This document shows, in pieces, positions 2,132 to 54,949 of a stretch of 64,000 nucleotides of DNA. A program made the position numbers and the translations under genes. The DNA comes from an archaeon (GTDB lineage Archaea > Nanobdellota > Nanobdellia > Pacearchaeales > GW2011-AR1). Positions within the stretch are counted from its first letter, which is position 1. Each line of letters begins with the position of its first letter. Below the pieces are notes generated by a model. That model saw only the letters and a program-made list of their open reading frames with translations. It had not been told where the DNA came from and searched no databases. The stretch lies in the NCBI GenBank assembly GCA_021107855.1, contig JAIORZ010000002.1:315316-379315 (forward strand). The letters run 5' to 3'.

Positions 2132-2202
2132 GGGTTCATCGGATAATGTTAGTCTACTCGGCTCCAGCCCGGGGGGTGGGGGTTAAATTCCTCCTGAGCC
2201 CA
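2132..2202 (+). tRNA. tRNA-Trp (CCA), intron-less, CCA end not encoded
   Basis: Acceptor GGGTTCA/TGAGCCC, D stem GGAT/GTCT, anticodon stem CTCGG/CCGGG with loop CT-CCA-GC, T stem GGGGG/CCTCC; TTTATATA box about 30 nt upstream. Confidence 0.88.
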
Positions 2203-2224
2203 TTTTCGAATTTAACACACACCA

Positions 2225-2320
2225 GGTGGGGGTGAGTGATTCGCTTTGAGAAAAACTAGTTCAAATTAATAATTATTTTTCGAAATGCAAATTACGAATG
2301 AAGAATTCCTCCTGAGCTCA
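2225..2320 (+). repeat. Interrupted duplicate of the tRNA-Trp 3' part with hairpin insert
   Basis: GGTGGGGGT (2225-2233) = tRNA 2175-2183; AATTCCTCCTGAGCTCA (2304-2320) = tRNA 2186-2202 with 1 mismatch; about 70-nt imperfect hairpin between them. Confidence 0.85.
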
Positions 2321-2374
2321 TCTAAATTTTGGACTTGTCAATACTTTTATAAATAATGTCTTCGTGCTGTAACC

Positions 2375-51923: not shown

Positions 51924-53615
51924 ATGGACTATTCAAAAATTTGTGAAACCTACAAAAAGCTAGAAGAAACGACCAAAGGTCTAGAAAAAACAGAAATATT
52001 AGCTAACTTCCTGAATAAGATTCGCGAAAACTCCGAGTTTATTTATCTAGTGCAAGGAAAATTGTTTGCGGATTACGACAATCGAGAACTTGGAATTTCG
52101 CATCAATTAATAATTAAAGCAATTGCGCGAGCAGCTGGAGTTGGAGAAGAAGCGGTCATCAACGAGTTTAAAGAACTTGGAGACCTGGGGAAAGCTGCAG
52201 AAGTTTTTTTAGGAAAAACAAAAAAACAAAAAGGCTTATTCGAAGAAAAATTAAGTGCCGAAAAGGTGATGAGAAATCTAAGGAAATTGGTTGAAATTGA
52301 GGGGACGGGAGCTGTTGATTTAAAAATTGGCTATGTTGTCGACTTACTGCTCTCGGCAACCGACGAAGAAGCAAAATACATAGTTCGAACCGTCCTCGGA
52401 GATCTAAAAATCGGCGTTGGCCCTGGGATTCTAAGAGACGCAATTGTTGTATCTTGTTTTAAACCAAAAGACATAGAGGATAAGAAAGTTTGCGTTAAAG
52501 CAGTGCAAGAAGCGTATGATAAAGCAACAGATTTCGCGGAGGTTTTTGAGAGAGCATGTAAAGATGAATTAGAAAAAATTAAGTTAATTCCTGGGAAACC
52601 CCTGAAAGTTATGCTGTTCCCAAAGGCTACTAGCATTGAAGACGCATTTCGAATTGTAGGAAGACCCGCTGCATTTGAGTATAAATATGATGGGTTTCGG
52701 GTGATGGTGAATAAATCGCAAGACGGTGAAATAAAAGTTTTTACTAGGGCTCTAGAAAATGTTACGCGGCAGTTTCCTGAGATTGTTGAAATTGCTGAGT
52801 CAAATATTTCTGGAAATAATTTTATTTTAGATTGTGAAGCAGTCGGATTCGATGCTAAAACAAATGAATACACTGATTTCCAAGCAGTCAGTCAAAGAAT
52901 CAAAAGAAAATATGGGATTGACGAAATGAGAAAAAGTCTCCCAATTGAATTGGTTATTTTTGACATTGTTTATTTAAATGAAAATAATTTAATCAAAACA
53001 ACTTTTTTAGAAAGAAGAAAAATAATTGAGAAGATTGTTAGAGAAGAAGATAAAAAAATTATTTTGGCACGACAGATTATCACCAGCGACGAAAAAGAAG
53101 TTGAGAAATTTTATAAGAAAGCACTGGATGATAGTCAAGAAGGTCTGATGGGAAAGAATTTGGATGCACCATACAAGCCCGGAGCACGGATTGGTTATGC
53201 TGTGAAATTGAAACCAGAGGACAATGATTTTGATTTAGTGATTACTGGGGCTGAATGGGGAACGGGGAAAAGAGCCGGGTGGTTGACGAGTTATGATATT
53301 TCTTGTAGAGGAAATCATGGGGAATTATTGGGAATAGGAAAAGTTTCCACGGGACTGAAAGAGCTGAGAGAAGAAGGACTTAGTTTTGGAGAGATGACAG
53401 ATAAATTAGAAAAAATTATGTTGAAAAGTGAAGGGAGACATATCGAAGTCAAGCCGGAAATTGTTATATCTGTGCAGTTTCAAAATATACAAAAAAGTCC
53501 GACGAACTCTTCCGGATTTGCATTAAGATTCCCCCGAATTTTAAGACTACGACCAGATAGGGGAGTTGAAGATATCACAACAATTGAAGAAATAGAAAAA
53601 GAAATTACCCAATAA
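51924..53615 (+). CDS. lig: ATP-dependent DNA ligase
   Basis: EYKYDGFR, EGLMGK, YKPGAR, ALRFPR. Confidence 0.97.
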   Translation: MDYSKICETYKKLEETTKGLEKTEILANFLNKIRENSEFIYLVQGKLFADYDNRELGISHQLIIKAIARAAGVGEEAVINEFKELGDLGKAAEVFLGKTKKQKGLFEEKLSAEKVMRNLRKLVEIEGTGAVDLKIGYVVDLLLSATDEEAKYIVRTVLGDLKIGVGPGILRDAIVVSCFKPKDIEDKKVCVKAVQEAYDKATDFAEVFERACKDELEKIKLIPGKPLKVMLFPKATSIEDAFRIVGRPAAFEYKYDGFRVMVNKSQDGEIKVFTRALENVTRQFPEIVEIAESNISGNNFILDCEAVGFDAKTNEYTDFQAVSQRIKRKYGIDEMRKSLPIELVIFDIVYLNENNLIKTTFLERRKIIEKIVREEDKKIILARQIITSDEKEVEKFYKKALDDSQEGLMGKNLDAPYKPGARIGYAVKLKPEDNDFDLVITGAEWGTGKRAGWLTSYDISCRGNHGELLGIGKVSTGLKELREEGLSFGEMTDKLEKIMLKSEGRHIEVKPEIVISVQFQNIQKSPTNSSGFALRFPRILRLRPDRGVEDITTIEEIEKEITQ

Positions 53616-53660
53616 ACTCCCCACAAACTTTTTTAAATCCCAAAATCCTCGCTTCAACAT

Positions 53661-53732
53661 GCGTGGGTAGTTTAGTGGTTAGAATCTGTCGTTGCCAACG
53701 ATGGGACCGGGGTTCAAGTCCCCGCTCGCGCA
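53661..53732 (+). tRNA. tRNA-Gly (GCC)
   Basis: Acceptor GCGTGGG/CTCGCGC, anticodon loop TT-GCC-AA, T arm CGGGG-TTCAAGT-CCCCG; TTTTTAAA box upstream. Confidence 0.92.
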
Positions 53733-53752
53733 TTTGTTTCTTGGGAATTGAA

Positions 53753-53841
53753 GTTCAAGTCCGAGCAATTAGGTCTTCGAGTAAAATAAAATATTCGAAG
53801 ACATGATTGTGAGTAGCTCGCGCATTTGTTTCTTGGGAATT
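53753..53841 (+). repeat. Interrupted duplicate of the tRNA-Gly 3' part with hairpin insert
   Basis: GTTCAAGTCC (53753-53762) = 53712-53721; 26-nt perfect repeat 53816-53841 = 53724-53749; 53-nt hairpin between them. Confidence 0.9.
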
Positions 53842-53845
53842 AAAT

Positions 53846-54949
53846 CTAAAAATCAGAACTCACAAGAAACTCACCAACATCCTCAGAAATAACTTTCTCC
53901 TCCGAAATCATCCTAACCAAATCCCTCAAAAAATTAACCCTATCTCTCTCCATCTGCTCATCAAGAGAATCCAAATCATAATCATAAGACGCCACCAATT
54001 CATAATCCCCAAGCTTATAATTTCTAATCAATCTCCCATCCAAAACTTCAGACCTAGTCGTCACAACAGAAACATCCCCAAACTTCTGAACAAGAATCTG
54101 CCTTTCATCCTCCGTAAGACCCTGTGAAGAAAATTCCGAAACCTCTAGCAAAACTGGCTCCTCTATTTCAACAATATCACTCTCTTGCAAAACACTAGAC
54201 AAAGAAAGAATCTCGTCGTCGTTATAAACAAAACTTATTTTCAACTCCCCAGCACTAAAATTCAAATCAAGTGCAGAAAGATTAATTTCCAAAACCCAAA
54301 ACTCCTCCTCGGAGTCACCAGAGTCATCCTTTGAGGATAAATAATCCGCACCAAAACCCTCTTCCTCTTCAAAATAAACAGTAGAAACAAAAACAGTACC
54401 ATTCAAAATCTCAAAATCAATATCTTCATCATTAAGCGTTTTGGAACCAATAGCCACACTTCCTGGCACCAGTTCTGCGGTTTGCCCCTCTTCTAAATTA
54501 TAGACAAGCGGTCTATCTGCAGAGATATCCCCAGAAACGATTTCCTCCGTTATCTTTTCTTCATCATCTGACGAAACATTAAACACAAACGAAATCTCCG
54601 GAGACTCCTTAGTTCCCATTAAACCATAACCCACCCCCTCTCCAGACAAATTCTTCCCCTCAATATAATACATTCCTTCAACAGACTCTTCAGAAACAAT
54701 ATCCTCTAAATCAAATTCCCGTCGTTCTTCGGAATTCTCAAAAACAACCTTAGTCGAAGCAGGAATAAATTCCCCCTTATTTAAAGACAACTCCAACACC
54801 CCATCCAAAATTTCCCCCTCATGATAATCGGCATTTAATTCTAAAACAGCATAACCCGAAAAACTATTTTGCAGAAAAATAAGACCAAGAGTCGCAACAA
54901 CAACAATCCCGAAAACCACAAAATACTTTTTATCTATTTTCAACGCCAT
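53846..54949 (-). CDS. Acidic secreted/surface hypothetical protein
   Basis: N-terminal TM followed by FSGYAV; very D/E-rich. Confidence 0.7.
   Translation of the reverse strand: MALKIDKKYFVVFGIVVVATLGLIFLQNSFSGYAVLELNADYHEGEILDGVLELSLNKGEFIPASTKVVFENSEERREFDLEDIVSEESVEGMYYIEGKNLSGEGVGYGLMGTKESPEISFVFNVSSDDEEKITEEIVSGDISADRPLVYNLEEGQTAELVPGSVAIGSKTLNDEDIDFEILNGTVFVSTVYFEEEEGFGADYLSSKDDSGDSEEEFWVLEINLSALDLNFSAGELKISFVYNDDEILSLSSVLQESDIVEIEEPVLLEVSEFSSQGLTEDERQILVQKFGDVSVVTTRSEVLDGRLIRNYKLGDYELVASYDYDLDSLDEQMERDRVNFLRDLVRMISEEKVISEDVGEFLVSSDF

Follow-up and report, generated by a model that had tools for sequence, protein, structure and literature searches.

Both transfer RNA (tRNA) genes in a 64,000-nucleotide (nt) stretch of an archaeal genome (contig JAIORZ010000002.1, positions 315,316 to 379,315; this whole stretch is referred to below as the window) are followed by a partial copy of their own 3′ end, and these copies, which we call stubs, carry a small hairpin-forming insert within their T-arm. 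The inserts downstream of tRNA-Gly(GCC) and tRNA-Trp(CCA) belong to a multi-copy family that is associated with tRNA genes throughout the genus. With slightly less than even confidence, we read them as a family of 50-70-nt non-autonomous DNA elements, imperfect hairpins closed by YGAR/YGAR ends, and the stubs around them as sequences that formed in place. The source genome, designated G000, is a metagenome bin of a DPANN archaeon (936 kb in 14 contigs, 38% G+C, 85% complete). It was compared with relatives from its genus; searches with R1, a covariance model of the hairpin alone, and for Y1 transposase (Y1_Tnp) genes covered 49 genomes, and the relatives' loci discussed below were picked by their similarity to the hairpin or to tRNA-Gly and hence constitute a sample and no census. 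tRNA genes were called with ARAGORN, and the window was also scanned with Rfam at gathering score, which returned the two tRNAs and nothing else.

The layout that an earlier note on this DNA had read from the letters downstream of tRNA-Gly, namely a copy of the T-loop, a 53-nt insert and a perfect 26-nt repeat of the 3′ end, is borne out by the coordinates (Table 1). The 10-nt T-loop string GTTCAAGTCC at 53712-53721 occurs again at 53753-53762, the insert between the two tRNA pieces extends over 53 nt (53763-53815), and the two copies of the 3′ end with its trailer agree over 29 nt with a single mismatch (97% identity, 26 nt perfect). Inside the insert, an inverted repeat with 18-nt arms (53766-53783 and 53792-53809) forms the hairpin. 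tRNA-Trp follows the same plan, so the claim that two of the two tRNAs in the window share this architecture also stands. The DNA between the repeats amounts to 65 nt in the Gly module and ~100 nt in the Trp module and contains no open reading frame (ORF); the Gly stub is without the CC of the tRNA, and the Trp stub is without TA.

Stubs are frequent in the remainder of G000. Exact same-strand matches of at least 11 nt between a tRNA and its own 600-nt flanks were counted for 13 of the 39 ARAGORN tRNA calls, with the adjacent Ser/Ser and Ala/Ile neighbours and an Asp call with a 300-nt ‘intron’ overlapping the Tyr stub excluded from the count, and Gly and Met add two stub-bearing tRNAs, resulting in at least 15 of 39. 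By our arithmetic, chance alone would give each tRNA ~0.02 exact 11-mers in common with 1.2 kb of flank, and the observed sharing exceeds this level. Stubs of the 3′ end are located downstream of Gln-TTG, Cys, Arg-TCT, Val-TAC, Tyr, Trp, Gly and Met, and stubs of the 5′ end, some of them with promoter, are located upstream of Gln-CTG, both Lys, Ser-GCT, Arg-TCG, Tyr, Glu-TTC and Leu-CAA. Some of the 5′ copies accompany other inserts: both tRNA-Lys genes have a 13-nt copy of their own 5′ end 72 nt before the gene, together with a conserved G+C-rich 59-nt insert of a different family (C1:170229-170300 and C2:270769-270840) and a promoter-like box before the upstream copy. At C1:154155-154206 and C1:223779-223831, tRNA-Gln(CTG) and tRNA-Ser(GCT) have a 14-15-nt 5′ copy followed by a common 38-nt insert that terminates in an inverted copy of part of the 5′ piece.

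Starting from five inserts, nhmmer searches converged on 10 copies of the hairpin in G000, to which the Trp copy adds an eleventh. All 11 adjoin tRNAs, and the possibility raised earlier that no further tRNA-associated hairpins would be found genome-wide is thereby answered. A covariance-model search had also been proposed in the earlier note; R1, which was built from the Gly-type hairpin, matches in 25 of the 49 genomes, with 0-12 copies per genome. In G000 itself R1 finds only one strong copy, and therefore the G000 copies span several subfamilies. The Gly-type alignment (A1) comprises 17 sequences, 16 of them from relatives, and has 14 predicted pairs, five with compensatory changes, as well as a conserved U.G pair and a conserved G/A mismatch. 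The alignment of the second subfamily (A2; Trp/Arg-TCT/Val type) comprises 11 sequences with 17 pairs, nine of them with compensatory changes, and its outermost pair covaries around the GA/GA step (C-G in eight and U-A in three of the 11), indicating structural constraint. Judged from the alignment, covariation of this flanking pair thus supports a putative G.A/A.G closing motif formed by the YGAR ends; tandem G.A steps of the YGAR type are stable in DNA as in RNA. Of the earlier description of unrelated stems with common ends, the common ends and G.A closing pairs are therefore retained, whereas the stems fall into two related subfamilies that occur genus-wide. The predicted fold of the Gly module is strand-specific, with the plus strand folding better than the minus strand (−14.8 versus −11.2 kcal/mol). 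C/D box small RNAs possess a C box (RUGAUGA) and a D box (CUGA) at their 5′ and 3′ ends, and inspection of A1 and A2 by eye for these motifs revealed neither C nor D boxes, nor was there an Rfam match to suggest a C/D box or kink-turn RNA.

The association with tRNA genes extends to the relatives. Of their loci, 20 resemble the Gly hairpin, and ARAGORN places a tRNA within ~250 nt of 18 of them; L064 is a tRNA-Val that is recognizable by eye and was missed by ARAGORN, and L061 lies behind the gene for elongation factor 2 (EF-2). In total, 34 of 41 distinct hairpins are at most 260 nt away from an ARAGORN tRNA, and the other seven consist of three in a tRNA-Ser array at a contig end, L064, L089, the EF-2 locus and L090, which lies in a protein gene. 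Since five of these seven are visible by eye in tRNA or tRNA-like sequence, such sequence hosts 39 of the 41 hairpins. L089 is a solo hairpin within a tRNA-Val-like gene of G052; since this genome also has normal Val tRNAs, the odd gene is uninformative.

In the relatives, the downstream modules follow a common order of intact tRNA, trailer of 1-~27 nt, often an inverted copy of the T-arm 5′ side, a short direct copy, the hairpin, and the rest of the tRNA with the native trailer, and, as seen by eye on the modules, the trailer after the intact gene starts like the trailer after the stub for 1-~27 nt. Of 27 downstream modules compared with shuffled spacers, 17 have an inverted T-arm copy between gene and hairpin at p ≤ 0.05, and in 16 of the 27 this copy includes at least 8 nt of exact match. 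Measured by exact-match boundaries, the direct left piece has a length of 6-10 nt (median 8) and the right piece of 6-26 nt (median 13); the left piece terminates at G53 in six modules and at positions 59-62 in nine, and 1-3 nt of the tRNA are lost in 16 of 21 modules. The upstream modules (Arg-TCG of G000, L066) are mirror images, in which an exact promoter plus 5′ part is followed by the hairpin, a diverged remainder and then the promoter with the intact gene. Arrays of two or three modules, as well as one nested copy inside an older stub (in L058), were found among L054, L055, L056 and L058. Insertion of the element is simple: the target site is not duplicated, 1-3 of its bases are lost in most cases, and the preferred sites are both edges of the T-loop of tRNA genes. 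The module repeats range from 6 to 26 nt of exact match and extend up to 76 nt, the length of the exact promoter-plus-5′ repeat in L066, and because these lengths vary we dropped a model of fixed-length target duplication. A miniature inverted-repeat transposable element of a DDE transposon, which would have terminal inverted repeats and a short target-site duplication of fixed length, was rejected on the grounds of the simple insertions without duplication and the variable repeat lengths.

The orientation of the hairpin is fixed by the chromosome strand and not by the gene. In G000, seven of seven copies on contig C1 are on the minus strand and four of four on C2 on the plus strand, and all 11 contigs of the genus with at least two R1 matches are uniform in strand (34 matches, which include some tandem copies; one weaker, overlapping match on the opposite strand was left out). 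With respect to the tRNA, 24 downstream hairpins are in sense and three in antisense orientation, compared with two and five of the upstream ones, so that 8 of 34 are antisense. GC skew in 20-kb windows puts 10 of the 11 G000 copies on the C-rich strand, and only the Trp copy departs from this. The GC skew of G000 is very strong and has opposite signs on the two large contigs, peaking at +0.50 (C1) and −0.49 (C2) in such windows; a reversal of the skew on C2 at ~240-340 kb includes the start of the window.

The module at tRNA-Gly differs between strains. Contigs from public runs were aligned to positions 53300-54200 of the window; RNA runs covered only small parts of the stretch. X3, from an independent sample of the study that includes X1, a run that may be the source of this DNA, contains the whole structure within a single contig of 35 kb, which departs from the window by 14 bases and an insertion of 9 nt. 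Two of these base differences are one and the same C>T change at 53740 and 53832, which are homologous positions of both repeat copies, and therefore the copies evolve in concert or are regenerated. The 9-nt insertion is located at 53971 inside a minus-strand ORF (53846-54949) and its length keeps the frame. X4, a contig from another study with ~93% identity, joins 53735 to 53842 with 17 different letters between them and represents an empty site with tRNA-Gly, a single trailer and no hairpin. A DNA ligase gene precedes tRNA-Gly in G000; in 19 relatives no tRNA-Gly follows this gene, and orthologous tRNAs were therefore sought by DNA search. The closest tRNA-Gly among the genus species (98% identical) is without a module, and in other relatives the hairpin or the break point at tRNA-Gly differs. 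That the tandem structure is an assembly artefact, in which strain variants were collapsed and joined, had been considered in the earlier note and might be suspected of a bin in 14 contigs, but X3 spans the structure with its own 14 strain differences and the identical layout recurs in dozens of independently assembled genomes, and we reject this explanation.

Two copies are placed outside tRNA genes. At L090 (G024:C9, ~1446-1700), a 53-nt copy without duplication interrupts a small gene for a tRNA-binding domain downstream of the methionyl-tRNA synthetase gene and splits it into two open frames of 60 and 45 aa. At L061 (G057:C23, 483-578), a copy lies 18 nt past the stop codon of EF-2 (Pfam EFG_C, E = 8.5e-21) and is flanked by an 8-nt direct copy of the gene before it and by a second copy of the last eight codons after it. 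This stub resembles the EF-2 ends of other genus species; in the comparison made for a chimeric origin of the G057 gene, all relatives were only 69-79% identical.

Where the target is dispensable the insertion is simple; in essential genes we see the element solely within a stub accompanied by an intact gene. We suggest that cells would not survive an element hitting EF-2 or a tRNA gene present once, and that the survivors would carry the hairpin in a stub, a brief tandem repeat of the gene end, beside the intact gene. Such a stub might arise in place during lagging-strand replication, from an unprocessed structured flap or from a template switch at the T-arm or hairpin, and either event would account for the combination of inverted and direct T-arm copies, the variable outer end of the trailer and the identity of the trailer copies. 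The hairpin would then split the repeat homology and slow down loss of the duplicate by recombination, and repeated rounds would produce arrays. In-place formation is favoured because the local trailers are identical, the strain differences concerted, the junction copies inverted and the outer ends variable; the order of events, the replication-based mechanism and the acting enzyme are what we infer, and the observations comprise the element family with its structural constraint, the tRNA association, the strand rule, the presence/absence polymorphism, the simple insertions and the module layout.

Several observations weigh against this reading. A two-step history predicts stubs without hairpin, of which essentially none were seen, and all eight downstream stubs of G000 have an insert. 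In the Gly module itself the inverted T-arm match is weak (5 nt exact, p = 0.22). In 29 of 34 modules the hairpin has the intact gene on its 5′ side, and this arrangement is hence not absolute (the exceptions include Met in G000 and L092). The GC skew of G000 may reflect gene orientation and not replication, which renders the lagging-strand assignment insecure, and related modules are not independent, so that the counts overstate the statistics. In the search for an enzyme that would move the element, G000, at 85% completeness, yielded no match to a Y1 transposase, TnpB or reverse transcriptase; since TnpB and reverse transcriptase were not found, a model of target-primed reverse transcription was dropped. 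In the EF-2 stub the frame is still open up to the stop codon, and the seven positions within eight codons at which it deviates from the intact end are all synonymous; therefore the two ends evolved under selection in different lineages. Diverged ends of this kind would not be predicted by duplication in place, and the only reconciliation we can offer is later recombination. One version of the in-place reading, which we consider unlikely, would make the insertion itself duplicative and independent of a dedicated transposase: a structured lagging-strand flap (or template switch) that carries the hairpin would be ligated instead of removed, essential genes would be colonised without being inactivated, and the copies would later act as portable stretches of homology at which diverged lineages recombine, so that an EF-2 stub with synonymous differences only would be explained.

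The EF-2 stub argues for an incoming foreign gene end, and we therefore keep as the main rival, though an improbable one, a miniature integrative element. According to this explanation, a small circle with the hairpin and the end of the target gene integrates at the T-loop, by a tyrosine recombinase acting in trans or by short homology, and displaces the native end. The 3′ end of archaeal EF-2 is a target of casposons, and the edges of the T-loop are the cut sites of T-loop-specific tyrosine integrases. Moreover, the order of intact gene, inserted DNA and displaced partial copy in direct orientation resembles attL/attR, the arrays resemble successive integrations, and synonymous-only differences in the EF-2 stub are expected if one end is foreign. 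G000 has three tyrosine recombinase genes, one of which (L073, C3:25819-26304; a 426-aa open frame with a weak Phage_integrase match of 27.1 bits) is separated by ~550 nt from three clustered tRNA genes (C3:24793-25268), and the L073 region may be an integrated element; tRNA genes are described as attachment sites in PMC3293823. Against integration, each duplicate is specific to its tRNA and up to ~27 nt of the fast-evolving trailer are identical to the native one, the trailer of the empty-site relative X4 is different, simple insertions occur without a regenerated end, the hairpin is within the T-arm of the stub and not beside the intact core, the inverted T-arm copy is left unexplained and the orientation tracks the chromosome strand instead of the target gene. 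We judge a derivative of IS200/IS605-type insertion sequences, similar to palindrome-associated transposable elements (PATEs) or repetitive extragenic palindromes (REPs), to be distinctly unlikely; on this view, a Y1 HUH transposase whose gene resides in other members of the population would excise the hairpin as a DNA single strand and paste it in elsewhere, and the duplications would be secondary. The strand-locked orientation, the strand-specific fold with its conserved mismatches and the lack of target-site duplication at simple insertions would all agree with such an origin, and Y1_Tnp genes are present in 12 of the 49 genomes, with 10 matches in G043 alone, within minimal IS200-like elements of ~550-730 nt that encode the Y1 transposase only. 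However, Y1_Tnp is missing not only from G000 but also from the hairpin-rich genomes G052 (100% complete, 12 R1 copies), G048 (nine), G011 (six) and G022 (five). Comparison of 18 module regions with eight IS200-like copies by blastn-short gave low-complexity matches only, and so no significant similarity of the inserts to their ends, and the hidden Markov models of the hairpins had no match inside these copies; a likeness by eye of one insertion sequence end to one insert family was not significant. In addition, the left flanks have no common tetra- or pentanucleotide as judged by eye, and the loss of 1-3 target bases is atypical of the IS200/IS605 family.

At the RNA level, the hairpins could be non-canonical T-arm introns or their relics, or the stubs could serve as alternative or decoy 3′ halves for splicing or for blocking an integrase, both of which the earlier note had listed and which we regard as very improbable. 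In the archaeal bulge-helix-bulge motif, a 4-bp helix lies between two bulges of 3 nt each at the splice sites. The earlier note had failed to draw such a motif, and inspection by eye, in place of a formal search, had the same outcome at the junctions of the window Gly module, L068 and Ser-GCT, where the 4 nt that follow the inner helix find no pairing partner in the exon. In favour of introns, a second tRNA-Gly gene in G041 is complete only if its D-loop insert is removed, L089 is a solo hairpin within a tRNA-like gene of G052, and non-canonical introns are reported to occur in archaeal tRNAs (PMC4090602). By contrast, 8 of 34 hairpins are antisense to the tRNA with the orientation fixed per contig, and 16 of 21 stubs are short of 1-3 nt of tRNA, so that removal of the hairpin cannot yield a tRNA. 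The same element breaks a protein gene, and the stubs, which lack bases and are decaying, are missing together with their modules from close relatives. Only one splicing-endonuclease gene was found in G000, a 175-aa open frame whose size fits the strict homotetrameric type. We reject the intron and decoy readings, and of the options considered earlier the non-autonomous hairpin element at T-arms with a regenerated 3′ end fits best, being multi-copy, constrained, polymorphic and associated with tRNAs, although without the link to IS200/IS605 that had been proposed with it. As regards the enzymes whose co-occurrence was to be inspected, G000 has the three tyrosine recombinases and the single endonuclease gene, and Y1 transposases are missing from G000 and G052.

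The modules share traits with several known systems. Casposons use a Cas1-type integrase and generate a target-site duplication of 14-15 bp, compared with the variable repeat lengths in the hairpin modules. REP sequences and bacterial interspersed mosaic elements (BIMEs), the IS200/IS605-derived PATEs and the Rickettsia palindromic elements are likewise small, multi-copy, non-coding hairpins, in which structure is conserved over sequence, some insert into genes and mobility is strand-specific; the archaeal elements differ in the lack of a linked Y1 enzyme, the T-loop preference, the small target loss and the duplication of the target end. Integron attC sites and CTX phage attP likewise fold strand-specifically into imperfect hairpins whose mismatches are conserved, and their orientation is biased with respect to replication, but there is no integron integrase or cassette structure here. 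The short tandem and quasi-palindromic duplications that arise from flaps or template switches, as in the FEN1/rad27 mutator spectrum, are also ~10-100 nt long with variable ends and inverted junction copies; the present ones differ in their stereotyped form, in their link to tRNA genes and a mobile hairpin family, and in having become fixed in natural populations. In the Thermoproteales, large-scale transposition of tRNA introns has reportedly been described by Fujishima et al. 2010, with related short sequences at non-canonical positions over many tRNA genes; those introns are spliced at bulge-helix-bulge motifs, reside in working genes and are always in sense orientation, whereas here we find dead stubs, either orientation and no bulge-helix-bulge. 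The closest formal parallel is provided by attL/attR of archaeal integrative elements (SSV-type, pNOB8-type), which, as described by Sugahara et al. 2012 (PMC3293823), also leave a regenerated tRNA gene and a displaced partial copy and form arrays by repeated events. In the present modules, however, only ~20-100 nt without any gene or integrase remnant separate the copies, the hairpin lies in the T-arm of the stub, the local trailer is duplicated, and an inverted T-arm copy and an orientation by chromosome strand are added.

A search of the literature, which extended to sources other than subscription journals and supplements, turned up no account of small hairpin elements that accompany duplicated tRNA ends in DPANN archaea. 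The origin of tRNA fragments, introns and split genes is a long-standing question, and Sugahara et al. 2012 proposed that inserted sequences end up inside tRNA pieces and that fragments become scattered (PMC3293823). If our preferred reading of non-autonomous elements within stubs formed in place is correct, very small elements continuously remodel the tRNA genes of reduced archaeal genomes and leave behind a working gene and a scar, which would constitute an observable route by which tRNA fragments and extra arms, and perhaps also split genes and introns of the non-canonical kind, arise. Annotators would have to treat the partial tRNA copies of DPANN bins as real. Both the strand rule and the junction, with its stereotyped pair of inverted and direct T-arm copies, point to a mechanism that is linked to replication or to a folded single strand and that is testable in vitro, and the occurrence of filled and empty sites in related strains makes the process observable in nature.

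Table 1. Positions of the components of the tRNA-Gly and tRNA-Trp modules in the window.
Feature	Position (nt)	Strand	Basis or remark
Intact tRNA-Gly(GCC)	53661-53733	+	ARAGORN; Rfam tRNA, 55 bits; sole GCC gene found by ARAGORN in the genome
First copy of the repeated unit: last 10 nt of tRNA-Gly plus 19 nt of trailer	53724-53752	+	Repeat family D1
Small hairpin H1: trailer bases predicted to pair imperfectly with the direct T-loop copy (53753-53762)	53744-53762	+	Fold; repeat family D2
Hairpin element, Gly-type subfamily, seed of model R1	53762-53815	+	R1 match of 73.9 bits at C2:369077-369130
Second copy of tRNA-Gly 3′ end plus trailer (displaced stub end), running into native downstream DNA	53816-53844	+	Repeat; empty-site contig
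Intact tRNA-Trp(CCA)	2132-2202	+	ARAGORN, Rfam
Inverted copy (16 nt, 88% complementary) of the variable/T-arm segment 2175-2190	2208-2223	+	Inverted repeat I1
Direct 9-nt copy of the T-stem 5′ side, GGTGGGGGT (left piece of the stub)	2225-2233	+	Repeat
Hairpin element, second subfamily (~70 nt)	2233-2303	+	Alignment with the Arg-TCT and Val-TAC copies of G000 and eight loci of relatives
Copy of tRNA-Trp 3′ end, 17/18 identical (94%)	2304-2321	+	Repeat family D2 of the second region

Some further tRNA-associated sequences were noticed. The canonical introns that ARAGORN predicts in G000 (Thr, Glu and Ser) are not members of the hairpin family as judged by eye, and the 89-nt sequence at C3:24793-24881 that was called tRNA-Trp(CCA) appears by eye to be a tRNA-Gly(TCC) with a short intron in the anticodon loop. 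Downstream of tRNA-Gly in two relatives, L025 (G019) and L028 (G001), another insert family with a common block of ~34 nt separates the gene from a 10-37-nt copy of its 3′ end and trailer. Finally, a 15-nt unit, AAGAAAGTAGTGAAA, occurs three times at 2381-2497 of the window, where the ORF that follows the Trp module starts.

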